From positions 1-10,785 of IMG/VR virus record IMGVR_UViG_3300029647_000054: DNA of 10,785 bases. One strand, written 5' to 3'. Of the stretch, positions 1 through 10,785 are shown piece after piece. A program made the position numbers and the translations under genes. This stretch comes from a virus (lineage: Duplodnaviria > Heunggongvirae > Uroviricota > Caudoviricetes). Each line of letters begins with the position of its first letter. The stretch's first letter is position 1. The notes under the pieces were generated by a model. It saw nothing but the letters and a program-made list of their open reading frames with translations. It was not told the DNA's origin and did not search any database.

Positions 1-42
1 CAGTTGTTCAGGCTGGCGTGCGAATTGTAAACCAGAATGCCA

Positions 43-71
43 GGAAAAAACAAAACCCGCCGAAGCGGGTT
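43..71 (-). terminator. Rho-independent terminator at the 3' end of the hok transcript
   Basis: Inverted repeat 54-60 / 65-71 (AACCCGC / GCGGGTT) with 4-nt loop; on the minus strand the hairpin is followed by TTGTTTTTT (53-43); lies about 70 nt 3' of the hok stop. Confidence 0.55.
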
Positions 72-139
72 AAGTGCGGGTGCGTTGAGGATGCCTGACT
101 CATCAGAGGTGGCGAGGGATTTCTCCCTCGCCAGGTCTC

Positions 140-295
140 TTACTCCTCAGGTTCGTAAGCTGTGAAGACAGTGACCTCCGTCTGGCCGGTTCGGATTCGT
201 ACCTCGCAGAGGTCTTTCCTCGTTACCAGTGCCGTCACAATGACGGTAATACAGATGACGATCAGGGCGACTAACATCGCCTTTTGCTGCTTCAT
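140..295 (-). CDS. hok: Hok/Gef family type I toxin (51 aa, HokD/HokC-like small membrane toxin)
   Basis: In-frame internal ATG at 295 of the 70-aa track ORF; product MKQQKAMLVALIVICITVIVTALVTRKDLCEVRIRTGQTEVTVFTAYEPEE closely matches my recollection of HokD/HokC; SD AGGAG about 7 nt upstream; single TM helix. Confidence 0.85.
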   Translation of the reverse strand: MKQQKAMLVALIVICITVIVTALVTRKDLCEVRIRTGQTEVTVFTAYEPEE

Positions 296-352
296 AGCCT
301 GCTTCTCCTTGCCTTTCGGCGTGTAAGAGGCTAACCTACATGTGACTAGCAT
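140..352 (-). CDS. mok: Mok-like in-frame upstream reading frame that couples hok translation (70 aa)
   Basis: ATG at 352 in the same frame as hok, as recalled for chromosomal mokC/hokC pairs; existence as a separate regulatory frame is inferred from the hok/sok paradigm. Confidence 0.5.
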   Translation of the reverse strand: MLVTCRLASYTPKGKEKQAMKQQKAMLVALIVICITVIVTALVTRKDLCEVRIRTGQTEVTVFTAYEPEE

Positions 353-410
353 GAAATTGGCCTCAGATTAATGTTAAGCGTCCTGCAAGACGCATAATGT
401 TAACTGGGGC
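340..410 (+). ncRNA. sok: Putative Sok-like antisense RNA overlapping the mok start region (approximate)
   Basis: Inferred from hok/sok architecture only; candidate promoter TTGCCT (309-314) - 17 nt - TAACCT (332-337) on the plus strand; no clean terminator seen, ends not determined. Confidence 0.25.
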
Positions 411-510
411 TTTTCTCTGTCTGCCTTACGGTGGCATGCCCGAGGCAGACAGCCTCAAGCACCCGCAGCAATTCTACTTAACTCTCGCTTTACCGCAAAC
501 CGTTTTTACC

Positions 511-532
511 CGATATGGGAATTCCCATATCG
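511..532. repeat. Perfect 22-bp palindrome CGATATGGGAATTCCCATATCG
   Basis: Read directly: 11-nt arms exactly reverse-complementary with no spacer; not followed by a U-run on either strand. Confidence 0.8.
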
Positions 533-540
533 TAATGAAT

Positions 541-645
541 TCAGTTCCCTAGTCGATCCATCAAAAACACAACCAGGCAGTAAACACCCACAACAGCAAT
601 AACAGCCAGCGCACCTTCCATTGCCAGTGAGATATCATCCGACAC
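541..645 (-). CDS. Small hydrophobic peptide (34 aa, GTG start), single predicted TM helix
   Basis: Not in ORF track (too short). SD AAGGAGG 4 nt upstream of GTG at 645; product VSDDISLAMEGALAVIAVVGVYCLVVFLMDRLGN; start codon uncertain (alternative ATG at 621). Confidence 0.3.
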   Translation of the reverse strand: MSDDISLAMEGALAVIAVVGVYCLVVFLMDRLGN

Positions 646-680
646 ATTCCCTCCTTTGGTGTTAATCCCGGCGAACGCTT

Positions 681-764
681 TTACCCACACCGACAAATAA
701 CATATACTAAAAAAGCGATAGCCATAGCAACGCCTGTAATTGCAAATGCTTCAGGCCAGATCAT
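681..764 (-). CDS. Small hydrophobic peptide (27 aa), single predicted TM helix
   Basis: Not in ORF track. ATG at 764 overlaps the TGA of the upstream DUF551 gene (ATGA); strong SD GGAGG with 7-nt spacing; product MIWPEAFAITAVAMAIAFLVYVICRCG. Confidence 0.4.
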   Translation of the reverse strand: MIWPEAFAITGVAMAIAFLVYVICRCG

Positions 765-1438
765 TGGCGCACCTCCTGCGGCGGTTCTGGTAGCGGCATC
801 CAGTGGGTTACTTTCGATGCCGGTTCTTCCCCATCGTCAGTAACTGCCCACCATTTGTTTCTCGACCAATCGTAATACCCTTCGAAGGTATCGCACTCAG
901 TCCAGCCGTAAGACTTACCCCAACACCAAACATACTGTTTATCGTCCGGAATTCGCTCACTACAGCTTATCCAACCATCCGGAGTTACCGGAGAGCTGGT
1001 TGACGCTTCCGGGATTTTCCGAAAATTATTGGTTGACGAATCTTTATTTTCCCGAAAGTTTCCGGACTGAAGCATGGCTTCGCGGCAATCGTTCCAGCCT
1101 GTAGCGTATGCAGCCGCTTTGCTGCTGCCTTCAACTGGCGCATCCTGCCAATACATTTCTTCCGGCACTACCGGCGCTGGAGGGGCGGCGTAAATGCCCT
1201 CTATCACTAAATGTTTGCGCTCAAAATCATCTGGCTCTCGATGATATACGTAACTCCAATCACCAAGGTTATCATTGCGCCTGCAACGGAAACCTATCGG
1301 CTCTGCTTCCAGCGATGCCAGAGCAATTCGTGCCAGTTCTTCCGCTTCTTCTGCTGGCAGTACAACGTTGCTACCCGGTCCGTATGTTTCGCGCCACTGC
1401 TTGATTGTCAGCAGTCGCTCTTTGGTAATAGTGGTCAT
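761..1438 (-). CDS. DUF551 domain-containing phage protein (225 aa)
   Basis: C-terminal Trp-rich segment (DGWISCSERIPDDKQYVWCWGKSYGWTE...VTHWMPLPEPP) matches the DUF551 pattern I recall from E. coli prophage proteins; ATG start verified. Confidence 0.7.
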   Translation of the reverse strand: MTTITKERLLTIKQWRETYGPGSNVVLPAEEAEELARIALASLEAEPIGFRCRRNDNLGDWSYVYHREPDDFERKHLVIEGIYAAPPAPVVPEEMYWQDAPVEGSSKAAAYATGWNDCREAMLQSGNFRENKDSSTNNFRKIPEASTSSPVTPDGWISCSERIPDDKQYVWCWGKSYGWTECDTFEGYYDWSRNKWWAVTDDGEEPASKVTHWMPLPEPPQEVRQ

Positions 1439-1440
1439 AG

Positions 1441-1629
1441 CTATTTCACCTTAATCTCAACATTTCGCAGCTTTAGCTCTACTGGCAGGTCTGACTTTCC
1501 GGTTAATGCTAATGCGAGATTTTCTGGAGTAATGAGAGCAGTTATTGTTCTACCCATCGCAAGGCGGATAATCAGCCTTATCTCTTCGTCACAAGCGCCA
1601 GGGCGAATAATTGATATTTGTCCGTTCAC
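1441..1629 (-). CDS. Hypothetical small protein (62 aa, GTG start)
   Basis: GTG at 1629 one nt after the upstream TGA, preceded by SD AAAGGAGAG at 5-nt spacing; same geometry as the ATG at 2484. The track's ATG at 1671 would overlap the upstream gene by 41 nt and lacks an SD. Confidence 0.5.
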   Translation of the reverse strand: MNGQISIIRPGACDEEIRLIIRLAMGRTITALITPENLALALTGKSDLPVELKLRNVEIKVK

Positions 1630-1630
1630 C

Positions 1631-1663
1631 TCACTCTCCTTTAATGCGAATGCCAGCGGCGCG
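1631..1663. repeat. Module-junction repeat, copy 1 (about 33 bp, 31/33 identical to copy at 2486-2518)
   Basis: TCACTCTCCTTTAATGCGAATGCCAGCGGCGCG; encodes the shared C-terminal AGIRIKGE tail plus stop and the SD for the next gene. Confidence 0.8.
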
Positions 1664-2164
1664 GGAATCATTCCATCGCTTTACTTCTTCACGAATTACG
1701 TCAATGCATTCTTTCGAATCCATTAGGTAATCTTCATCAAAAAGACGTTCCTGTTCGTTTTCTATCGCAACAATGATTGCTTCAACTAACTTTTGTGCCT
1801 GAGAACCACTTTCTAACTCTGCAATGCGCTGTTTTACGGTATCAAGTTCAATCGATAATTTTTCCAACTGCTCTTTATGCTTCTTGTATTCCTGATATGC
1901 GTGCCAGGACTGACCTTTGCGCACACTATCAGTAATATCAGTAATCTGTTCTGGTGTTAGCGTAGTCAGTGGCTGTGCTGGGAAAATCAGCACTTTCCCG
2001 GAATCCCAATCAAAACCAGCGTGAATTGACTGAACCTCAACTGATGGTGTTGAACCGATGCGACCAGGCGAATGAACAACGATCGTTACATCCATATCTC
2101 GACGATGGCTGTGGTTGCTGGACAAAATACGATTCACCAACTCAGAAAATTTGGAAAATTTCAT
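1631..2164 (-). CDS. Hypothetical protein (177 aa) with coiled-coil C-terminus ending AGIRIKGE
   Basis: ATG at 2164 overlaps the upstream TGA (ATGA), SD AGAGGG at 7 nt; the track ORF's extra 43 N-terminal residues would overlap the upstream gene; last 8 residues identical to the Ea22-like protein. Confidence 0.6.
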
Positions 2165-2484
2165 GTTGATCCCTCTTTCTCTCCCCGGATAATTCTGTTG
2201 CACACATCCACACACTCGTCGCAGATGAAAACGGCGTCCCCAGCAATTAACTTTTTGACGGCGTACTGGGATTTGTTGCAGAAGCTGCAACAAAGTGTTC
2301 GCCTGACTGATAAGGATGGAGCGCCAGATGTCAGCCGCTCCATATCGTTCTTGCGACGCAATATCACACGGCTGAACTCAACCAGTTTCTCCGGGGATAT
2401 CTCCTCCTCCGTAGCGAGCGTCTCTAGTCGTTCGAGTATGTTGAAGGCTTTTTCCTGGGTAATAGCAGAATGCGATGTGGTCAT
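2161..2484 (-). CDS. Small protein with ClpX N-terminal zinc-binding-domain-like C4 zinc finger (107 aa)
   Basis: [38 protein letters not shown] aligns with ClpX N-terminus ([37 protein letters not shown], from memory) with identical CxxC-x18-CxxC spacing; ATG at 2484 with SD AAAGGAGAG. Confidence 0.75.
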
Positions 2485-2485
2485 C

Positions 2486-2518
2486 TCACTCTCCTTTGAT
2501 GCGAATGCCAGCGACGCG
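2486..2518. repeat. Module-junction repeat, copy 2
   Basis: TCACTCTCCTTTGATGCGAATGCCAGCGACGCG; same coding/SD content as copy 1. Confidence 0.8.
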
Positions 2519-3181
2519 TGGCACATTAACTTCCACGATGCGCACATTTGGTTTGTACATCTCAATCGCTGTCAGCCAGTCAGCGCCAGTCATGCGCTTT
2601 TCTGCATCGCCATTAGTCCACTTAACCGGTACACCAATAGCCTTCATCGCGATTTCTATTTCCCCGGCAATGGTGCTTTTTCCGCAACCAGTAAAACCAG
2701 ATACAACGACCAGAACTTCACCTTTGGCTGGTTTTATTTCCCGCGCTTCCAGTTCTGCTATGCGCTTACTTCCATCCGAGATAACACCTTCGTAATACTC
2801 ACGCTGCTCGTTGAGTTTTGATTTTGTCTCCTCAAGCTCAACGCGCAGCTTCCCTACCGTTAACGCAATATCCTCGTTCTCCTGGTCGCGGCGTTTGATG
2901 TATTGCTGGTTTCTTTCCCGTTCATCCAGCAGTGCCAAGACAGCAGTCGGATTGGCCTCTGCTATGAACTCAGCGTTTGCATAAGCCTGAGCATCTGTTT
3001 CAACCAGGCAGTTAACATGACATTCTGCAATCACGCCACCGGGTTCTCCTTTCCATTTTTGACAAACAAAAACTCCTGTTAAATTGCCGTGCTGGTTAAC
3101 AGATGTATGCCCTACGATGTAGCTTCCTTTAGTTGCTTTCTCTGCCTTTTCACGCAGTGCCTGATAGTTAATCTCGCTCAC
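2486..3181 (-). CDS. Ead/Ea22-like protein with C-terminal Walker A (P-loop) motif (231 aa, GTG start)
   Basis: N-terminal region with [20 protein letters not shown] motif typical of Ea22-like proteins as I recall them; central coiled coil; [10 protein letters not shown]-loop; GTG overlaps upstream TGA (GTGA) with SD GGAGGA at 6 nt. Confidence 0.7.
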
Positions 3182-3402
3182 TCTTCATCCTCCAAGTCGG
3201 CAACGGCGTCCATCACATCAGAACCGCGAATAACCTCAAAAGCACGGCAGGCCATTTGAAATACCAGTTGCTCTTGCGGGTGAGGAGACTCCCAATATTT
3301 GAAGCCTGGGCGATGCGTGTACCCCATCATTGAATAAAAATCACCAGCAAGCTTAATCGCGGCATCGACAAGCTCTCTGTTAGTCATTCTTTTTCCGCTC
3401 AC
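3178..3402 (-). CDS. Hypothetical small protein (74 aa, GTG start)
   Basis: GTG at 3402 overlaps the upstream TGA; SD AAGGAGG at 6 nt; no family recognised. Confidence 0.5.
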   Translation of the reverse strand: MSGKRMTNRELVDAAIKLAGDFYSMMGYTHRPGFKYWESPHPQEQLVFQMACRAFEVIRGSDVMDAVADLEDEE

Positions 3403-3749
3403 TGGTTGCCTCCTTTGCGAAGCTGGGCGGCTAACTCATCACATATGTGCGTCAAAGAACAAAGTTTGATTGATGGATGTTCGCGCATCATCTCTACCCC
3501 CTGCGCCCGCACTTCAGACAGGAAAGCATCGGTGGCTGGCATATTTCCTGTTGCCTTCATTGCCTCCAAAATAACCAGAACGCCATCTCGCCCAATCTCC
3601 TCGCAGATAACCTCGGTGCTGTCGCCAACAACATCGCAAAATGCCTGAACTGCTTTACGAGCCAGCGCATCTTCCGCCCTGTGAAACGCCTCGCGGTTGA
3701 AATTTTCATATCCCGTCATTGGACCGGCAATATAAACTCTGACCCTCAC
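3399..3749 (-). CDS. DUF4406-like (nucleoside 2-deoxyribosyltransferase-like fold) phage protein (116 aa, GTG start)
   Basis: N-terminal VYIAGPMTG motif characteristic of DUF4406 as I recall it; rest of protein did not match my memory of the family; GTG overlaps upstream TGA with SD AGGAGG at 7 nt. Confidence 0.55.
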   Translation of the reverse strand: MRVRVYIAGPMTGYENFNREAFHRAEDALARKAVQAFCDVVGDSTEVICEEIGRDGVLVILEAMKATGNMPATDAFLSEVRAQGVEMMREHPSIKLCSLTHICDELAAQLRKGGNQ

Positions 3750-4138
3750 TCCATCACCTCCTGAAAGTTTCCCCGATAGAACGCCAGCACACGCTGCATA
3801 ACTTCGCTCCTCCTGCTCTCACGACAAATTATGTTCTGCCGTCTGTTGTAACGACGTATTTCTCCGTCAGGTAACTTTCGAATCAGTGTCGGGTCAGCAG
3901 CCTTCTCCGGTGTCTTACGCCATACGCGATACGCCTGCTCTGATGGAAATACCCCGCAACCAGAGAGCCAGACATCACCACTGGCCGCAAGCGCACCAGA
4001 TAAACGACGAATAGCGGTCTTACTGACACCCGTTTTATCTGCCAGTTGTCGAAAAGTTTCTCGTCCGCTCAGGCGCACGAATTCCACAATGCGCGCCTTC
4101 ACTTCTTCCCGCTCTTCTGGTGTAAATACTTTTGCCAT
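3746..4138 (-). CDS. Putative HTH DNA-binding protein (130 aa)
   Basis: ATG at 4138 with SD GGAGG at 5 nt (track start at 4153 is TTG); helix-turn-helix-like segment FRQLADKTGVSKTAIRRLSG. Confidence 0.6.
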   Translation of the reverse strand: MAKVFTPEEREEVKARIVEFVRLSGRETFRQLADKTGVSKTAIRRLSGALAASGDVWLSGCGVFPSEQAYRVWRKTPEKAADPTLIRKLPDGEIRRYNRRQNIICRESRRSEVMQRVLAFYRGNFQEVME

Positions 4139-4153
4139 AAGCGCCTCCGGCAA

Positions 4154-4879
4154 TCACTTTTCCGATACAACACGGCGGGAAGAATCAGTAATCTGTCGAA
4201 CAATATCCCGGTGCTTGTTCAGCTCCCGCAGCGCGGCGCAGACTCGCTCCCACTTCTGAACCTGACCTTTTGCCCGGCGCAGCTCGCGGTTAGCCACATG
4301 CAGCGATGGTAAAATCAGACCATCCGGATGTTTTCTGGTGAACGACGGCTGTGACTGCACTGTGACCGCCACACTTTCCGTTTTTATTTCTTCCTGTGTT
4401 TCTGCTTCCCGGACAGGTAACGCAACACCTGCTGGCTGAGGAAAGGCTTTACCGTCGGTTTCCGCTACGGATGCAGCTTCCGGCTCTGCCGGTAAATCAG
4501 CGCCCGGTATGCAGTAACGAAATTTACCGCCCTGATTCACGCGAATCAGACGCCCTTTGCTGATTGCCATGGCCAGCGATGAATTCGCCCGGCGGGAGGT
4601 AATCCCGAACATCAGTGCCAGCTCATCCGCCGTTTGTGGGCCATGTTGTTCAATCGCCTCAGTCAGCATTTGCGCTGTCACTTTCGGTACCGGTGACACC
4701 GGTTCACTTTCACCAGCCTGAATCAGCCGCCACATCGAACCCTTGTTATCCGCTTCACCGCGGCGCTTCAGTTTCCACAGTTCGTTGACCGCATCTTCAC
4801 GGCTGATTCCAAGGCGGGACGCCACTACCTGTGAAGAGGCTCTTTTCAGTGCTTTCAGTGCGTCAAATACGGTTTCCAT
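4154..4879 (-). CDS. Hypothetical phage protein with two winged-helix-like segments (241 aa)
   Basis: ATG at 4879 with SD GGAGG at 8-nt spacing (track start at 4897 is TTG and contains that SD); two internal segments resembling winged-helix DNA-binding folds. Confidence 0.65.
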
Positions 4880-4912
4880 TAAAATTTCCTCCGACAAAAT
4901 CGTTTCTCAGAT

Positions 4913-5575
4913 TCAAATAAAACCAGCTGCCTTCCGGCGTTCGTATTCCTGTTTCAGCCGTTCAATTGGCGTTGGCCCTTGCGGGTGTTTCGCCCCTTCC
5001 AGTTGTCGTCGCACTGGCGGAACACTCATCCCGTTACCAACATGCTTTGCCCATTTCGTCAGTTGCCGTTCCGCAAGTCGTTTTAACTCACCCTGCGTCA
5101 TCTGGCGCTCAATCCCTCTGGTACGCATTTCGAGGCAGATGTGGTACAGCACAGGCTGTGGCCACGGGTATTTATCACTCCCGTCGTATCGCCAGGATTC
5201 ATTGCGCCAGCGCCGGTACTCTTCCATCACGGCATCCACCGTAAGACCAAATGGATTTGCCCCACTCTCCGAAATCAGCGCAACAAACTCAGCCAGGTCC
5301 GGGGGCCACGTTTCACCCGCCCGGCAGCGGTCCATGCACTGACGGCAGACCAGCCGGATTTGCTGTTCAGTCATCGTGCCAATCTGGGCAATCCAGAGCT
5401 TCGAAGGTGCGGCCCCGTTCTTCTGAGTCCAGCGGTTCGAATACACCTCCCCCATAAGCTCCCACAGCTTCCAGGCCATTTCCGTTGCTGATAAATCCGT
5501 TGTCTCGTTCCCACTGTTCGCGTGCTGCCCGGATTTCCTGAACTGCCCGTGATGCCGTGCCACCTGATGCTGCAT
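4913..5575 (-). CDS. Replication protein P-like (lambda P family helicase loader), up to 220 aa
   Basis: Similarity to lambda P as recalled (W-x-A...TMxEQ, FxP-P--F-A, YPW motifs); ATG at 5575 has SD AAGGGGG at 6 nt; start uncertain (alternatives 5479, 5455); overlaps O-like frame. Confidence 0.7.
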   Translation of the reverse strand: MQHQVARHHGQFRKSGQHANSGNETTDLSATEMAWKLWELMGEVYSNRWTQKNGAAPSKLWIAQIGTMTEQQIRLVCRQCMDRCRAGETWPPDLAEFVALISESGANPFGLTVDAVMEEYRRWRNESWRYDGSDKYPWPQPVLYHICLEMRTRGIERQMTQGELKRLAERQLTKWAKHVGNGMSVPPVRRQLEGAKHPQGPTPIERLKQEYERRKAAGFI

Positions 5576-6404
5576 GGCTTACCCCCTTGCTGACTGGTTT
5601 TACCTGTGTCCTGACGTGCTGCACGTGGCGGGCAAATTTCTGCTCCCACTGAACCTGTGTGAAAACCTTCCCCTCCGCCATCCAGTAATCCCGGAATGCG
5701 GCAAGCTCTGCAGGTGTAAATTCCGGCTCAGGCAGAGCCATACCCCACACTGCTGCCCGTTGTCGAAAATCCGACGACGGCTGCCAGACAGTAGTCATCG
5801 AAAATTTCCCGATCGGTTCGCTCAGGCCGTCCAGGTATTCAGGTTCGGCTGTCTGCAACGGCGCACCATGCGACTCACCGGTTGGAGCACTCTCGCGCAT
5901 GCGCGCGTTATGTGTGGGGTTTAATTCTGTATCTGTATCTTTATCTGTCGTGACTTGTCGTGACAGATGCGTGACACGTCGTGACTCATCGTGACAATCA
6001 GCATCATATTTCCGCAGCTTTTCGCGCTCCCGCTGCGCTCTCTTGCGCTCTGCCGGGGATTTTGCCGTTTGCGAAACGTTACCATTGTCCTCTTTCAGCA
6101 CCTGACGTTTTTCCCATCCGGAAATAAGGTCACCATCCAGAACCCGCCCCTGCATTGCATGCAAAATTGAATCAATTACGTCTTCCGTCACATCAAGCGC
6201 ACTTGCTAAATCTTCCGTCGTGACATCAATGTGACCACGTAGTGACACGCCGTGACATGTCGTGACATTTCGTGACGCACTCACCAGAAGGTGGATATAC
6301 ACCGCCATCACTGTTGCGATTGGCTGTCCTGAGACCCTGGCAATGGTTCGCCATTTGGGATCATTTGGCATGTCATGCCACAATCTGAGCCAGGCATTAG
6401 CCAT
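5367..6404 (-). CDS. Replication initiator / replisome organizer (lambda O-like) with internal iterons (345 aa)
   Basis: N-terminus MANAWLRLWHDMPNDPKWR resembles phage replisome-organizer N-domains; iteron clusters inside the coding region; ATG at 6404 with SD GAGG at 5 nt (track start 6410 is GTG). Confidence 0.75.
   Translation of the reverse strand: MANAWLRLWHDMPNDPKWRTIARVSGQPIATVMAVYIHLLVSASRNVTTCHGVSLRGHIDVTTEDLASALDVTEDVIDSILHAMQGRVLDGDLISGWEKRQVLKEDNGNVSQTAKSPAERKRAQREREKLRKYDADCHDESRRVTHLSRQVTTDKDTDTELNPTHNARMRESAPTGESHGAPLQTAEPEYLDGLSEPIGKFSMTTVWQPSSDFRQRAAVWGMALPEPEFTPAELAAFRDYWMAEGKVFTQVQWEQKFARHVQHVRTQVKPVSKGVSHAASGGTASRAVQEIRAAREQWERDNGFISNGNGLEAVGAYGGGVFEPLDSEERGRTFEALDCPDWHDD
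5948..5995. repeat. Iteron cluster 1: five direct repeats of (T/G)CGTGAC at 10-11 bp spacing, preceded by a 6-bp periodic (TATCTG-like) tract
   Basis: CGTGAC at 5949, 5959, 5970, 5980, 5990; adjacent tract 5924-5947; read directly. Confidence 0.7.
6220..6276. repeat. Iteron cluster 2: six direct repeats of GTGAC at 10-11 bp spacing
   Basis: GTGAC at 6220, 6231, 6242, 6252, 6262, 6272; read directly; about 270 bp from cluster 1, both inside the O-like gene. Confidence 0.7.
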
Positions 6405-6472
6405 ACTCACCTCATCTGATACCGAACTTTACCCTCGAACATCCGGAAGAAATCCGGCATGAATATTGTTGG

Positions 6473-6898
6473 TCAATGCACGACAACAGCATTACCAGGC
6501 TGACCACCACTGTTAGTCAGGGTGCCCCAGGCGATCGCCGCTGCGACAAAATCATCCACATCTTTCACCAGCCGATCCCTCCGTTCGACGATCTCACGGT
6601 AATATTCAGAGCTGTGACTGCGCATACGGGCCACCAGCAAAGGCGGCATCGCCTTTTCGATCGCCGGTAACAGAGCCTGCATTTTTTCAACAGCATCAGG
6701 GGTGTCTTTATCCAGCCAACGGAAAATTTTCTGGGTATTACGGGCCAGGGCTTCCGGATGGCTGTCGTCATACAGTTCCGGGAACGTCATTCCCAGCTCG
6801 AAATACGCTTTGGTAATTTTCGCAGCCGGTACTTTTTCGCCGTCCGGATGCGCCCAGACATTCATCGCCATGCGGATGTGTTCATGCTTGATTTTCAT
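6473..6898 (-). CDS. YdaT-like protein in the cII position (141 aa)
   Basis: Starts MKIKHEHI and ends VVVH as I recall for Rac YdaT; ATG overlaps the Cro-like gene's TGA (ATGA); family assignment from memory only. Confidence 0.55.
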   Translation of the reverse strand: MKIKHEHIRMAMNVWAHPDGEKVPAAKITKAYFELGMTFPELYDDSHPEALARNTQKIFRWLDKDTPDAVEKMQALLPAIEKAMPPLLVARMRSHSSEYYREIVERRDRLVKDVDDFVAAAIAWGTLTNSGGQPGNAVVVH

Positions 6899-7158
6899 GA
6901 ATCAACTCCCAGCGCGGGTTGTGTGTTAGCCTGATAGTCAACAGGTATGCCATCGGTTGGGTTGGGGTAAGTACTGCTATCAATCTCGTGCGGGGTCACT
7001 ACCCACCCTGTTGCTTCACACCAGCGTAAAACTTTCCCCCCCGTAAGTTTCGCCCGTCCAGTAATAACATGGCTTACCATCCCTTGGGTTACCCCAACAA
7101 TTTCAGCAAAATCTTTCTGGGTTATACGGGAATGATGCAAATATTCTCCAAGATTCAT
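6895..7158 (-). CDS. Cro-like HTH transcriptional regulator (YdaS/Cro family, 87 aa)
   Basis: HTH segment QKDFAEIVGVTQGMVSHVITG; divergent from the CI-like repressor across an operator-containing intergenic region; SD GAGGTG 4 nt before ATG. Confidence 0.75.
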   Translation of the reverse strand: MNLGEYLHHSRITQKDFAEIVGVTQGMVSHVITGRAKLTGGKVLRWCEATGWVVTPHEIDSSTYPNPTDGIPVDYQANTQPALGVDS

Positions 7159-7188
7159 TGTTCACCTCATGTTATGTGACCATGAATA

Positions 7189-7230
7189 TTAATAGCATTG
7201 TTATTTTTAAAAGTAAATAGCACTGCTATT
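7189..7230. promoter_or_regulatory. OR-like region: two 15-bp palindromic operators plus a PR-like promoter for the Cro-like gene
   Basis: Operators AATAGCATTGTTATT (7191-7205) and AATAGCACTGCTATT (7216-7230); on the minus strand TTTACT (-35, 7217-7212), 17-nt spacer, TATTAA (-10, 7194-7189). Confidence 0.65.
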
Positions 7231-7265
7231 TCAAAGAGATTAATAATCTTATTAGAATTGAAGGT

Positions 7266-7766
7266 ATGAAAAGAAAACCCCTGTCAGAGATCGACCTGCA
7301 AGCCGCCCAGAGACTGAAAGAAATCTGGACGACGAAAAAAACTCAACTTGGGTTAACCCAAGAGCGTGCGGCAGAAATTCTGGGTTTTTCGACACAAGGG
7401 GCAGTAAGCCATTATCTAAATGGTCAGACACCTTTAAATCTAGAGGCTGTTATCAAGTTCGCTGGGTTGCTACAAGTTCCGCCTGAGTCAATTAGACCAG
7501 ATATGGCAGACTTGTTACGAATTGTAAGGATGTACCCCCAAGAACTGCAGCAGGATAATGTTGTCGCTTTACCCGCAGAGATGGAACAATCGGAAAACGA
7601 ACTTCCGTTTAATATAGAACCTATAGAGCGAGATTTGATCCAGACGTTCAGGGCTTTCCCAAAAGAAGACAAAGAGAAAATGCTTAAGGAAATGAAGGAG
7701 AAAAAAGAATCAATTGAAGAAACCGTTGCGCGGTGGCTAGAGGCGCAAAAAGGTCTTCGCGCCTAA
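7266..7766 (+). CDS. paaR: CI-like HTH repressor, regulator of the three-component TA module (PaaR-like, 166 aa); no S24 peptidase domain
   Basis: N-terminal HTH (LGLTQERAAEILGFSTQGAVSHYLNG); divergent from Cro-like gene; directly upstream of antitoxin-toxin pair; C-terminus too short and lacks a LexA-like autocleavage domain. Confidence 0.75.
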   Translation: MKRKPLSEIDLQAAQRLKEIWTTKKTQLGLTQERAAEILGFSTQGAVSHYLNGQTPLNLEAVIKFAGLLQVPPESIRPDMADLLRIVRMYPQELQQDNVVALPAEMEQSENELPFNIEPIERDLIQTFRAFPKEDKEKMLKEMKEKKESIEETVARWLEAQKGLRA

Positions 7767-7783
7767 TCTGAGGAGGTTAGAAC

Positions 7784-7975
7784 ATGAGTACAGTCCTTTC
7801 CCCGATAATTTCAGAATTTGAAACAATCGAACAAGAAAACAGCTATAACGAATGGTTACGCACCAAAGTGGCAGCAAGCCTCGCAGACCCCCGTCCTGCA
7901 ATTCCGCATGACGAAGTAATGGCTGAAATGGAAAACCTTATTGCGCAAATAGCTTCGACGAACAGGAGTGAGTAA
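7784..7975 (+). CDS. paaA: PaaA-like antitoxin (63 aa)
   Basis: 63-aa acidic protein immediately upstream of and overlapping (TAATG) the ParE toxin gene; matches my recollection of the PaaA2 antitoxin from E. coli O157 paaR2-paaA2-parE2; SD GAGGAGG at 8 nt. Confidence 0.7.
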   Translation: MSTVLSPIISEFETIEQENSYNEWLRTKVAASLADPRPAIPHDEVMAEMENLIAQIASTNRSE

Positions 7976-8265
7976 TGCTGCCCATTTTATGGCTACCTTC
8001 TGCGCGTGATGATTTGCGTCAGATCGTAGCCTATATTGCCAAGGAAAACCCTCCCGCTGCACGTAGACTAAAAATACGCATTGAAACATCAGTTTTGTCA
8101 CTTACTGAACACCCTTACCTGTATCCACCAAGCGAAAGAGCCCTAGGCCTTCGTGAGATAGTGACCCATCCTAACTACATAATACTTTACCGAGTAACAG
8201 CATCTAACATCGAGATCGTAAATGTAGTTCACTCACGAAGGCAGTATCCAAACAAAAGCTGTTAA
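7975..8265 (+). CDS. parE: ParE/RelE-superfamily toxin (ParE-like, 96 aa)
   Basis: Typical ParE sequence features (LPILWLPSARDDLRQIVAYI...EHPYLYPPSE...REIV); start overlaps antitoxin stop by 1 nt. Confidence 0.8.
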   Translation: MLPILWLPSARDDLRQIVAYIAKENPPAARRLKIRIETSVLSLTEHPYLYPPSERALGLREIVTHPNYIILYRVTASNIEIVNVVHSRRQYPNKSC

Positions 8266-8280
8266 TCATTCCTACCAACA

Positions 8281-8304
8281 ACCACCTTCGGGTGGTTTTT
8301 TTTT
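8281..8304 (+). terminator. Rho-independent terminator after parE
   Basis: ACCACC-TTCG-GGTGGT hairpin followed by a run of nine T. Confidence 0.8.
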
Positions 8305-8320
8305 CTTACCTCCAAAAAAC

Positions 8321-8362
8321 AATAGCATTACTATTTACAGAATAAAATAGCAGTGCTATTGT
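8321..8362 (+). promoter_or_regulatory. OL-like region: two 15-bp palindromic operators plus a PL-like promoter driving the dicB-type operon
   Basis: Operators AATAGCATTACTATT (8321-8335) and AATAGCAGTGCTATT (8346-8360); TTTACA (-35, 8334-8339), 17-nt spacer, TATTGT (-10, 8357-8362); mirrors the OR architecture. Confidence 0.65.
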
Positions 8363-8538
8363 TTATTCATCACCCACCCTCCCCACAGAATGCAGGGCAA
8401 TACTTCGAGTTACCCGGCAGTGGTCAGGGGTTAAGTAGCCAGCCCGAGGCGTATGAACATGACGGCGGGAACACTTTGTATAACAGCGCAGCAGGTTTTT
8501 GTTCCGCTACCCCGGCGTTAAGGGGAAATGAGGTCAGC

Positions 8539-8691
8539 ATGGATACTATCGAGCTTGGCAACAGCGAATCTCTGGTATGCGGCGTGTTTCCCAACCAGGA
8601 CGGCACGTTTACCGCGATGACGTATACCAGAAGCAAAACGTTTAAAACGGAAGCTGGCGCGCGTCGCTGGTTAGCAAGAAGCTCTGACTGA
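8539..8691 (+). CDS. Small protein (50 aa), first gene of the PL-type operon; possibly YdfA/YdaF (DUF1391)-like
   Basis: ATG with SD GAGG at 5 nt; in frame with the track ORF whose GTG start lies inside the operator; family assignment is positional only. Confidence 0.4.
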   Translation: MDTIELGNSESLVCGVFPNQDGTFTAMTYTRSKTFKTEAGARRWLARSSD

Positions 8692-8789
8692 TGAAGGTTA
8701 GTAATTAAAGAGTTCTCCACAGGCGAAGTGGAATACGTTCGCAGGACACGGGTAAGCATTCGGCATGCTCTTTAACAATCTGGGTATTC

Positions 8790-9236
8790 CTAACCACAAA
8801 GGAATCGCATCAATTTGGATTTTGCAGACAGTTTCTCTTGTTGTTCTACGGAGATTCCTATTTTGATCTGGGTTTTTAAGATTGCGATATCTTTAAGCGA
8901 CGACCAAATATTATCATCTGTTTTTTCCAGGAGCTTTAACTGCATTTTCAATTCCGAATCGGAATATTTTTCTGCATCATCATAAAGCTGCAGATATTCT
9001 GCGGATTTTCTCATTGCGTTACCTGACTTTTGTCCGAATCCGTAAATCGTTTGAACGGTTGCTATCACAACAATGAGAACTCCAGAAACTTCAGGAATAA
9101 ATCCACCAATGACAGATGAACCGAGGATAATACTCACCACTGAGAAAAGTTTATCGAGACGACCAGTCGCTACAGAGAATAGTTGTTCAAGAAAATAACC
9201 ATATAAAACCCTGTCAAGAATATCATCCCGGTCCAT
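8790..9236 (-). CDS. AT-rich two-TM membrane protein with coiled-coil-like C-terminus (148 aa); candidate superinfection-exclusion (sieB-position) protein
   Basis: Opposite strand to the surrounding operon; SD AGGTG at 8 nt; hydrophobic segments LFSVVSIILGSSVIGGFI and VLIVVIATVQTIYGF; clearly lower GC than neighbours; function inferred from position. Confidence 0.55.
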   Translation of the reverse strand: MDRDDILDRVLYGYFLEQLFSVATGRLDKLFSVVSIILGSSVIGGFIPEVSGVLIVVIATVQTIYGFGQKSGNAMRKSAEYLQLYDDAEKYSDSELKMQLKLLEKTDDNIWSSLKDIAILKTQIKIGISVEQQEKLSAKSKLMRFLCG

Positions 9237-9295
9237 ATATCATCACCTGCTTGTTTGATTGTTGCTGTTCCCCCTCTCCTCTGAAGGAGCTGGAG

Positions 9296-9484
9296 ATGGT
9301 TTTGGTCGAATGTTTTTCTCAGGTATATGTTTCCTGGTATTCGGAATGTCCGCCCTGTCCGCAGGCTTACCAGTACCTGAACAATTCTTTTGAACCACCA
9401 TATAAAACACCTTCCTGTTGTTGGGGATATCCAGATTATACAGATTTCCTGTTATTGGGGAATGACGGAAACCACCTCGCCTGA
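9296..9484 (+). CDS. Small Cys-rich protein (62 aa), hypothetical
   Basis: ATG with SD GAAGGAG at 6 nt; six Cys including CPPCP and SCCW; preferred over the overlapping low-complexity minus-strand ORF. Confidence 0.4.
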   Translation: MVLVECFSQVYVSWYSECPPCPQAYQYLNNSFEPPYKTPSCCWGYPDYTDFLLLGNDGNHLA

Positions 9485-9699
9485 CGTGGTTAAAAGCAGG
9501 CACACAACACGAAAGCGCACGGCGAGATTCCTTTGCATATAAGGCTTGTCGTTAAATTTCTTCGACCGTGCACTTCCGGTTGTGGCAGTCCGCGAAATGG
9601 CGCGGCGGTAAGTATGGCTGGGGCTTCCTCCATTGCTCCAGAAAATGCACCGGGTCGTCAGGTTGACCATACGCTTAAGTGACAGCCCCGCCACAATAC

Positions 9700-9757
9700 C
9701 CATGTGTAGTATTTGGTGGCATCAGTTCTACTCCGTGACTGCTCTGCCACCCTTTTT
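9700..9757 (+). ncRNA. dicF: DicF-like small RNA (ftsZ-targeting sRNA family) with intrinsic terminator
   Basis: TTTGGTGGCATCAGTTCTACTCCGTGACTGCTCTGCCACCCTTTTT closely matches my recollection of K-12 DicF, with compensatory stem changes; sits directly upstream of dicB as in Qin. Confidence 0.7.
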
Positions 9758-9761
9758 AAAG

Positions 9762-9922
9762 TGAATTTTGTGATGCGGTGAATGCGGCTATGCGCACGCG
9801 GAACAGTTAAAACCGTAAAGTGGTCTTTTACGGGGCGTAACGGGCATCCTTCTGTATTCCGGCGTTAATTGTTAACTGGTTAACGTCACCTGGAGGCACC
9901 AGGCACCGCATCACAAAATTCA
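9762..9922 (+). repeat. Long-range 19-nt perfect inverted repeat (TGAATTTTGTGATGCGGTG at 9762-9780 and its reverse complement at 9904-9922) bracketing 123 nt between dicF and dicB
   Basis: Read directly; would form a 19-bp RNA duplex in the operon transcript. Confidence 0.7.
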
Positions 9923-9939
9923 TTGTTGAGGACGCGATA

Positions 9940-10128
9940 ATGGAAACGTTATTACCAAACGTTAATACGTCTGAAGGTTGTTTTGATATTGGTGTTCTGC
10001 TCAGTAACCGGGAGTTTACGGAAGATGCCATTAAGATGAGAAAATATGAACCTTATCTTCTCAATGATAATTCCATACTTTCCAGAATTGCCCTTCTTGA
10101 ACTTGGTATTATCGGAGAACAGCAGTGA
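9940..10128 (+). CDS. dicB: Cell division inhibitor DicB (62 aa)
   Basis: N-terminal 35 residues (METLLPNVNTSEGCFDIGV...FTEDAI) closely match K-12 DicB as recalled; C-terminus diverges; SD GAGGA at 7 nt. Confidence 0.85.
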   Translation: METLLPNVNTSEGCFDIGVLLSNREFTEDAIKMRKYEPYLLNDNSILSRIALLELGIIGEQQ

Positions 10129-10313
10129 CTTCAGCATTTGCACTGGTGATGACCGTTTTTCTTATAACGGGTGAGCCACAAAATGTGATTACCGGAATTT
10201 ATGACAGTAAGTCATCCTGCATTCAGGTAAGGGACGAACAAAAAATCCCCGGTGAATGCCTCCCGTTAAAAAAAGTATCGCTGAACCTGAATAACGAAAT
10301 ACCGGCTGGATAA
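10125..10313 (+). CDS. ydfD: YdfD-like small membrane/lysis protein (62 aa, GTG start)
   Basis: GTG overlaps the dicB stop (GTGA), SD GGAGAA at 5 nt; N-terminal hydrophobic helix; assignment by position in the dicB operon and size. Confidence 0.5.
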   Translation: MTSAFALVMTVFLITGEPQNVITGIYDSKSSCIQVRDEQKIPGECLPLKKVSLNLNNEIPAG

Positions 10314-10408
10314 CCCGCCAGCCATATTAACACCATACCAACGGATTAAAAATGCCAGCAATGGCAGGGATTCGTTCACCCTGAAATCTGTAATGAGGTT
10401 AAAACAAA

Positions 10409-10785
10409 ATGAGTAAAGTCTTTATTTGCGCCGCTATTCCTGACGAACTGGCAACAAGGGAAGAAGGCGCTGTGGCTGTAGCCACAGCCATTGAAGCTGG
10501 CGACGAACGCCGTGCTCGAGCAAAATTTCACTGGCAATTCCTGGAACATTATCCGGCTGCTCAGGACTGCGCTTATAAATTTATTGTCTGCGAGGATAAA
10601 CCCGGCATACCCCGCCCTGCCCTCGATTCATGGGATGCTGAATATATGCAGGAAAACCGCTGGGATGAGGAGTCTGCTTCCTTTGCCCCGGTTGAGACTG
10701 AATCAGATCCGATGAACGTCACTTTTGACAAGCTGGCCCCTGAAGTACAGAACGCTGTCATGGTTAAGTTCGACACATGTGAAAA
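10409..10785 (+). CDS. Partial CDS (runs off the window end, at least 125 aa), YdfE-position hypothetical protein
   Basis: ATG at 10409 with SD GAGG; open frame to the window end; not in the track because no stop is reached. Confidence 0.55.
   Translation, partial: MSKVFICAAIPDELATREEGAVAVATAIEAGDERRARAKFHWQFLEHYPAAQDCAYKFIVCEDKPGIPRPALDSWDAEYMQENRWDEESASFAPVETESDPMNVTFDKLAPEVQNAVMVKFDTCE

Follow-up and report, generated by a model that had tools for sequence, protein, structure and literature searches.

The replication initiator and helicase-loader genes of a lambdoid, Rac-like Escherichia coli prophage overlap out of frame on the same strand. The DNA analysed (the window) comprises 10,785 nucleotides (nt), positions 1 to 10,785 of the IMG/VR virus record IMGVR_UViG_3300029647_000054. 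Its region 4800–6500 is 99.8% identical to a prophage of strain JNEC-KY177, and the relevant genes are all located on the minus strand. We conclude, with a probability of about 0.8, that the O-like initiator gene and the P-like loader gene (O and P below) form an ancient, genuine same-strand overlapping gene pair in the Rac-like prophage replication module. This reading involves the following features.

5367..6410, minus strand: O-like replication initiator, open reading frame (ORF) from GTG 6410; the RefSeq coding sequence (CDS) in the 99.8% identical genome starts at ATG 6404 (5367..6404, 345 amino acids (aa))
4913–5575, minus strand: P-like helicase-loader gene, 220 aa from ATG 5575, the proposed full length according to Pfam, homologues and the conserved ATG and Shine-Dalgarno (SD) sequence
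5588–5581, minus strand: P SD sequence AAGGGGGT, five bases before ATG 5575 and inside the O coding frame
5367..5575, minus strand: out-of-frame O/P overlap, 209 nt
5453..5455, minus strand: ATG of P residue M41, used by the Prokaryotic Genome Annotation Pipeline (PGAP) as start of 180–181-aa homologues in Citrobacter, Klebsiella and Salmonella
5372..5374, minus strand: RefSeq P start ATG, judged to be an internal methionine (M68)
5371..5649, minus strand: third-frame ORF, 92 aa, without Pfam match

The O-like frame terminates at the TGA at 5369–5367, and the P-like ATG occupies 5575–5573 with an in-frame TAA two codons upstream. An earlier interpretation made from the letters alone (the sequence-only reading) had described an O frame open to 5367, an SD-preceded P ATG at 5575 and an open third frame, and all three were found again. 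Relative to P, the O frame is shifted by +2, such that O position 1 corresponds to P position 3 and O position 3 to P position 2. Read in the O frame, AAGGGGGT forms part of K-G-V; relatives carry GGAGGT at this site, which encodes a conserved T-G-G in the O frame. The O/P overlap of lambda measures 4 nt (ATGA), in agreement with the few nt that had been assumed.

Thirty-eight genomic loci were fetched, one per species, and 26 non-redundant loci from about 18 genera were analysed. The far P ATG was located 42–53 codons before a conserved KNG motif in 26 of 26 loci, nearly always preceded by a GGAGG-type SD sequence. The same loci all contained an O-like ORF of 300–390 aa whose frame was +2 to that of P in every case; it ended 20–71 nt beyond KNG, the distance in the window being 56 nt. 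The resulting overlaps ranged from 149 to 227 nt. Three Vibrio phages (D77, 1.214.O and 219E41.1) displayed an upstream ATG, an overlap of 191–212 nt and a recognisably homologous initiator tail, accompanied by a recognisable SD sequence in two of the three. Their loader-like ORFs of about 210–220 aa share the P N-terminal domain:

L043, 1699–2358: Vibrio phage D77
L044, 1690–2322: Vibrio phage 1.214.O
L045, 1693–2334: Vibrio phage 219E41.1

The Vibrio phage proteins match P residues 34–131 and are encoded directly downstream of lambda-O-like genes. The deposited loader CDSs of these phages are likewise truncated, beginning at the O stop or beyond it, or are labelled hypothetical.

Across the overlaps of the 26 loci neither the P nor the O frame contained a stop codon, whereas 95 stops (3.7 per locus) were counted in the third frame and 43–52 in each of the reverse frames. 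The GC content of the overlaps was 0.52–0.62 (0.57 in the window). The stops in these other frames at such a GC content exclude the high-GC artefact that the sequence-only reading had held possible. The third-frame ORF was likewise discarded as a gene and is regarded as a chance opening, its frame being closed by the 95 stops in the relatives. In a resampling null, synonymous codons were redrawn with one protein held fixed and the other frame was scored. Given the P protein, the O frame was expected to be open in 1.2 of 26 loci (4%); given the O protein, the P frame was expected to be open in 6.9 of 26 (23%). Both were open in all 26. The overlap is beyond chance, and both frames are open in diverged relatives.

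Public records carry three starts for the P family, which give proteins of about 154, 180 and 220 aa. ATG 5374 is the P start in RefSeq, which follows PGAP, and in the record of phage Rac-SA53, whose sequence is 87% identical across P and the 3′ end of O. A P of 154 aa results, which overlaps the O stop by 8 nt (ATGACTGA), and a further set of phage records places the start even later. The RefSeq protein WP_000139447.1 (154 aa) is 66 N-terminal residues short of the 220-aa form. If its start were right, the two genes would meet in a lambda-like junction of the ATGA type, which ATGACTGA does resemble, and similarity upstream of 5374 would be a by-product of O-tail conservation. We consider this scarcely credible. 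Variation in the upstream region is found at P-frame and not at O-frame wobble positions, M68 is replaced by Leu in several homologues, and in other genera PGAP's own calls include forms of 180 aa. A start at 5374 is already contradicted by the comparative sequence data, and the RefSeq P is a truncated call.

A survey of 172 database homologues of P, 21 of which were aligned, revealed many proteins of 216–223 aa from many genera that span the whole 220-aa ORF. Others are 177–181 aa long and start at the M41 equivalent. The residues M41, W49, K52, N53, G54, P57 and W61, all encoded upstream of 5374, were near-invariant in the alignment of 21 homologues; P residues 34–67 are near-invariant across Enterobacterales, and an A-W-x-L-W motif ahead of M41 is common to the homologues. 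These homologues contradict the alternative named in the sequence-only reading, in which P homologues would start at 5374 or later and share no conserved residues ahead of that point. An AlphaFold2 (AF2) model of P built on the same alignment predicted a disordered stretch at residues 1–23 (predicted local distance difference test (pLDDT) <50) followed by confident helices at 24–45, 47–53, 59–66 and 70–85. The first three of these predicted helices would be removed by a start at 5374.

SD strength was calculated as duplex energy with the anti-SD sequence, for which the background is -3.1 kcal/mol. The far ATG at 5575 reached a mean of -8.9 kcal/mol and -11.8 kcal/mol in the window, the M41 equivalent at 5455 a mean of -6.5 kcal/mol and the same value of -6.5 kcal/mol in the window. 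The RefSeq start at 5374 had a mean of -4.3 kcal/mol and remained at background in the window (-3.1 kcal/mol).

These values bear on a further alternative, in which P starts at M41 (ATG 5455), the overlap shrinks to 89 nt, and the P frame between 5575 and 5456 stays open without being translated. M41 is near-invariant and preceded at a distance of 3 nt by a moderate SD-like GGGAG. P residues 1–23 are poorly conserved as well as predicted to be disordered, and O synonymous sites opposite this leader are no more constrained than those upstream. All this would fit a start at M41. However, Leu occupies this position in two Buttiauxella/Dryocola loci (L021 and L022) and in Vibrio phage L043, and both the conserved A-W-x-L-W and the predicted helix 24–45 lie upstream of it. 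Moreover, the far ATG and its stronger SD sequence are kept in every one of the 26 loci, the P frame is open far more often than the 6.9 loci expected, and P identity in the leader region exceeds its null (see below). We therefore regard initiation at M41 alone as improbable; the M41 ATG may be a secondary internal start. Another methionine, M33 (ATG 5479–5477), was ruled out as a conserved start candidate. It is a variant of the window, present in a handful of 45 close haplotypes, the great majority of which have Thr at this position (SATETAWKLW). The P start is probably ATG 5575. Dual coding over at least 89 nt is essentially certain because the near-invariant residues from M41 to W61 lie upstream of 5374, and an overlap of the full 209 nt is best supported, in keeping with the 90–209 nt that had been proposed from the sequence.

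Two Erwinia loci (L031 2992–3618 and L037 2974–3543) contain orphan P-type genes with no initiator upstream. These genes abut a chromosomal TtcA-like gene and a phosphotransferase system (PTS) transporter and look like prophage remnants or domesticated loaders. As orphans they were dropped as evidence for an unconstrained upstream P start.

The overlap is partitioned between the two frames, each half being dominated by one of them with residual constraint on the other.

5486..5575, minus strand: half R1, about 90 nt, P codons 1–30; variation follows the O frame
5367..5485, minus strand: half R2, about 119 nt, P codons 31–68 into codon 70; variation follows the P frame, AWKLWELMGEVYSNRWTQKNGAAPSKLWIAQIG

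Within R1, variation is highest at P position 2, the wobble position of the initiator, and amino-acid identity is 0.44 for O compared with 0.2–0.3 for P. Here O encodes the conserved helix motif TASRAVQEIRAAREQWER (residues 285–303, nt 5502–5558). From about P codon 31 the P wobble position turns variable and O amino-acid identity drops. The switch from an O-like to a P-like codon-position pattern near P codon 30 was also visible within 45 E. coli-type prophage haplotypes. Their diversity (pi) in R1 was 0.031, 0.0015 and 0.093 at O positions 1, 2 and 3, and in R2 it was 0.005, 0.016 and 0.080 at P positions 1, 2 and 3. The AF2 models showed a corresponding division. O was predicted to form a lone, amphipathic-looking helix at 285–303 and, at residues 308–347 beyond it, a disordered tail rich in Gly and acidic residues (pLDDT <50). 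The O helix is encoded opposite the disordered leader of P, and the disordered O tail opposite the folded helices of P.

Constraint on the weaker frame of each half was measured against the resampling nulls and against control regions. In R2, O-frame identity was 0.323 compared with 0.261 in the null (z = 10; z = 2.4–4.6 in three P control regions). The O frame of R2 encoded 7.8 acidic residues (D+E) per locus compared with 5.3 in the null and contained 0.08 stops per locus compared with 1.31, the controls matching their nulls in both cases. It reached at least +56 in 24 of 26 loci, with about 6.4 expected. In R1, P-frame identity was 0.292 compared with 0.172 in the null (z = 16; controls 5–7), and P-frame stops were absent where 0.35 were expected. 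Purifying selection is detectable in each frame inside the overlap. The search for constrained synonymous sites proposed in the sequence-only reading had a divided outcome: simple tests were non-significant, and the resampling tests with controls revealed residual constraint.

Several observations weigh against the interpretation as a genuine gene pair or limit its scope. The fraction of identical codons was 0.448 in P codons 31–68 compared with 0.416 outside (p = 0.10), and 0.455 in O residues 279–309 compared with 0.483 upstream. P wobble diversity within E. coli was not lower in R2 (0.080) than in P-only sequence (0.073), and therefore sequence-specific constraint on the last approx. 38 residues of O is modest. 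The control regions themselves gave z-scores of 2–7. In addition, the 26 loci are phylogenetically related, so that the z-scores overstate independence; because relatedness inflates all of them, it is the contrast with the controls that carries the argument. AF2 confidence of the O helix 285–303 is low (pLDDT about 46–59), and translation from the P start at 5575 is supported indirectly, by the conserved SD sequence and ATG. Finally, the upstream homology that the sequence-only reading had derived from an alignment to lambda P was not reproduced. Lambda P aligns only from P residue 85 (nt 5323), downstream of 5374, which is the sole weak point of that interpretation; homology upstream of 5374 is instead provided by the Pfam model (residue 58 on) and, most importantly, by nearer relatives in the family (about residue 34 on).

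Some of these points are shared by a reading in which both frames are translated over 209 nt without any dual function. The first approx. 30 residues of P and the last approx. 38 of O would then be passengers, a spacer and a read-on tail, and the overlap a tolerated by-product. This is compatible with a genuine overlapping pair and touches only the functional half of that explanation. It agrees with the single-frame substitution pattern of each half, the non-significant synonymous-site tests and the predicted disorder of both passenger segments. Radical changes in the O tail at P wobble sites (R/W, H/R/C and S/P/T) and an O end located 33–36 nt earlier in two loci point in the same direction. 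Yet the O frame stays open in R2 much more often than expected, its acidic residues exceed the null and its identity exceeds the controls. Furthermore, the layout is kept from Enterobacterales to Vibrio phages, and the tail is retained on unrelated initiator families. On balance, passengers without function are a possibility to be taken seriously, though one that we do not favour.

A programmed +1 frameshift within the overlap, producing an O-P fusion protein, appears very unlikely. Rare fused proteins do occur in public read assemblies (P0171, 496 aa; P0216, 481 aa), joined at sites corresponding to approx. 5448–5520 of the window, and one of them switches frame in a GGGGG run (5448–5452). 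However, they are single- or two-member clusters from read assemblies, and their junctions differ: one is a homopolymer shift and the other a deletion between TGGGA repeats, as is typical of errors or mutants. A conserved slippery motif was not found in the overlap, nor was significant local RNA structure (z = 0.10), and the independent SD sequence and ATG of P are conserved. The fusion proteins probably represent sequencing errors or defective prophages.

The initiator is assigned by sequence to the DnaT-domain (YdaU-type) replisome organizers. It contains the DnaT domain PF17948 at residues 203–268 (E 7.5e-17, 61.3 bits, cut-off 25) as its sole match in a Pfam scan, and Phage_rep_O (PF04492) was absent from that scan; "O-like" describes its role and not its family. 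The score of 93 bits for the NCBIfam DnaT equivalog is below the cut-off of 201, and therefore the protein is not DnaT itself. Its layout consists of an N-terminal helical domain, a long disordered linker, the DnaT-like domain and the C-terminal tail.

A common tail of about 70 residues was observed on initiators of several kinds. It follows DnaT domains in the window and in L009, L026 and L033, Phage_rep_O in L020 (PF04492, E 7e-27), DUF1376 in L021 and L023, and regions without a Pfam domain in L024, L028 and L029. In E. coli itself, DUF1376 or T5orf172/MUG113 N-termini precede the half made up of DnaT domain and tail. With the 77-aa O tail as query, a word-indexed search returned 8 partial E. 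coli matches and a full HMMER scan 22 matches, mostly C-termini of 317–360-aa proteins; neither was informative beyond the known loci.

The loader is a PF06992 (Phage_lambda_P) member by sequence (58.3 bits, cut-off 26, E 1e-15, residues 58–187), and DnaB loading is predicted. Its residues 85–194 align with lambda P 94–204 (hhalign probability 92%), and it matches the lambda P of DnaB complexes (PDB 8v9t, E 2.7e-6; 8v9s, E 7.1e-6). The P proteins of phi80 and HK225 align with it only from residue 92. BLASTP, hhalign and hmmsearch gave no alignment of the lambda-type N-terminal region (lambda P 1–93) before loader residue 85.

According to the proposed mechanism, the 220-aa P would be translated from its own strong ribosome binding site at 5588–5573. 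With about 70 initiator codons still to come after this site, both frames of 5367–5575 would be translated. In the first approx. 90 nt, the initiator frame would be the informative one, encoding the conserved helix near its C-terminus, and the loader frame would yield a disordered leader. In the last approx. 119 nt, the loader frame would specify helices one to three of the N-terminal loader domain, opposite an acidic, glycine-rich and disordered initiator tail. Lambda-style termination-reinitiation is impossible because the P start is located 209 nt upstream of the O stop. Without stop-start coupling, P must therefore initiate de novo within translated O mRNA, presumably on messages crossed by initiator-translating ribosomes. 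No RNA structure hiding the P ribosome binding site was detected beyond that of shuffled sequences (z = 0.10), and the coding strand showed no internal promoter-like site.

The initiator tail might serve as a docking element for the loader's N-terminal domain. In lambda, the C-terminal part of O binds P, as known from classical lambda/phi80 hybrids and O-fragment studies; a reciprocal O-binding region has probably been mapped on lambda P. If the analogy to lambda holds, recombination could exchange the origin-binding portions of the initiator, and the overlap would meanwhile keep the tail physically locked to its matching loader. The occurrence of one tail on different initiator families suggests, by inference only, that tail and loader are inherited jointly as a cassette. 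The N-terminal domain of lambda P shows no detectable homology to that of the loader, which weakens the docking analogy and speaks against this part of our interpretation. In its widest form the proposal is speculative: the 209 nt would encode both sides of the initiator–loader interface, one frame specifying the C-terminal docking helix and acidic tail of the initiator and the other the N-terminal loader domain, so that recombination never separates a matched pair. The tail-plus-loader unit would then be a portable cassette that at least four unrelated families of origin-binding initiators in Enterobacterales and Vibrio phages have acquired and that may also have entered the chromosomal VdhL loaders of Vibrionaceae.

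The genes around the overlapping pair are arranged as follows.

6895–7158, minus strand: Cro-like gene
6473–6898, minus strand: YdaT-family gene
4154–4897, minus strand: DUF1627 gene

The coding strand of the initiator gene harbors seven copies of GTCACGA (TCGTGAC in the window) with a periodicity of about 10 nt, arranged in two clusters at 5936–5995 and 6238–6276. The first cluster is located in the region for the predicted disordered linker. The repeats look like iterons, which makes the interior of the initiator gene a candidate prophage replication origin. Ori-lambda is likewise located inside O. In the near-identical genome (L003), a 238-aa LexA-family repressor is annotated opposite the cro-like gene (7361–8077). 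The window instead contains only shorter plus-strand ORFs within 7160–7980 (7266–7766 and 7784–7975), and its immunity region may differ from, or be disrupted relative to, that of L003.

Comparison with lambda O-P reveals the same module and gene order, consisting of a cro-like gene, an initiator with candidate iterons inside and a helicase loader. The C-terminal part of the window loader is homologous to lambda P 94–204, which lies within the DnaB-bound loader structure. In contrast, the overlap is 4 nt in lambda and 209 nt, out of frame and with an internal SD sequence, in the window. The window initiator has a DnaT-like domain and no Phage_rep_O, and the N-terminal approx. 85 residues of the loader are not detectably related to lambda P. 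A lambda O read-through product ending inside the P N-terminal coding region, an old report mentioned in one paper, is a parallel and not evidence.

Overlapping genes are well known from phiX174 (A/B, D/E and K) and lambda (Rz/Rz1), and long out-of-frame overlaps are familiar in phage genomes. Ordered sequence in one frame is commonly found opposite disordered or low-complexity sequence in the other. The window pair shares with such overprinted genes this opposition of order and disorder and the use of two frames of one strand over more than 100 nt, but its genes, those of two replication partners, overlap only in part, tail to head, and neither is embedded in the other. The Rac region ydaS-ydaT-ydaU-ydaV also resembles the window, which has a cro-like gene, a YdaT-family gene and a YdaU-type DnaT-domain initiator too. 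The Rac prophage of E. coli K-12 presumably carries the DnaC-like YdaV instead of a P-type loader.

Virus-derived helicase loaders of Vibrionaceae (VdhL) display weak similarity to PF06992 proteins and are adjacent to O-like genes (PMC11087808). The Vibrio phage loaders found here are likewise encoded directly downstream of lambda-O-like genes, and L043–L045 may belong to the phage relatives of VdhL. The 2024 paper, for its part, nowhere uses the word overlap (PMC11087808). No description of the initiator/loader overlap was found in the searchable literature; subscription journals may hold one. The long P form is already among the products of gene callers, as the database homologues demonstrate.

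The RefSeq protein of a very common E. coli prophage gene thus seems to be 66 residues short, including three predicted helices, and studies of homology, structure or interaction that use the short P form would be misled. Beyond annotation, the overlap points to a testable docking element, a conserved helix plus acidic tail on otherwise unrelated initiators, paired with a loader N-terminal domain that is not of the lambda type. This offers a hypothesis of how non-lambda initiators recruit a P-type loader. The pair represents a clean, deeply conserved, partitioned overlap between two partners, with order in one frame and disorder in the other, and would provide a mechanism that keeps co-adapted interfaces linked in highly mosaic genomes.

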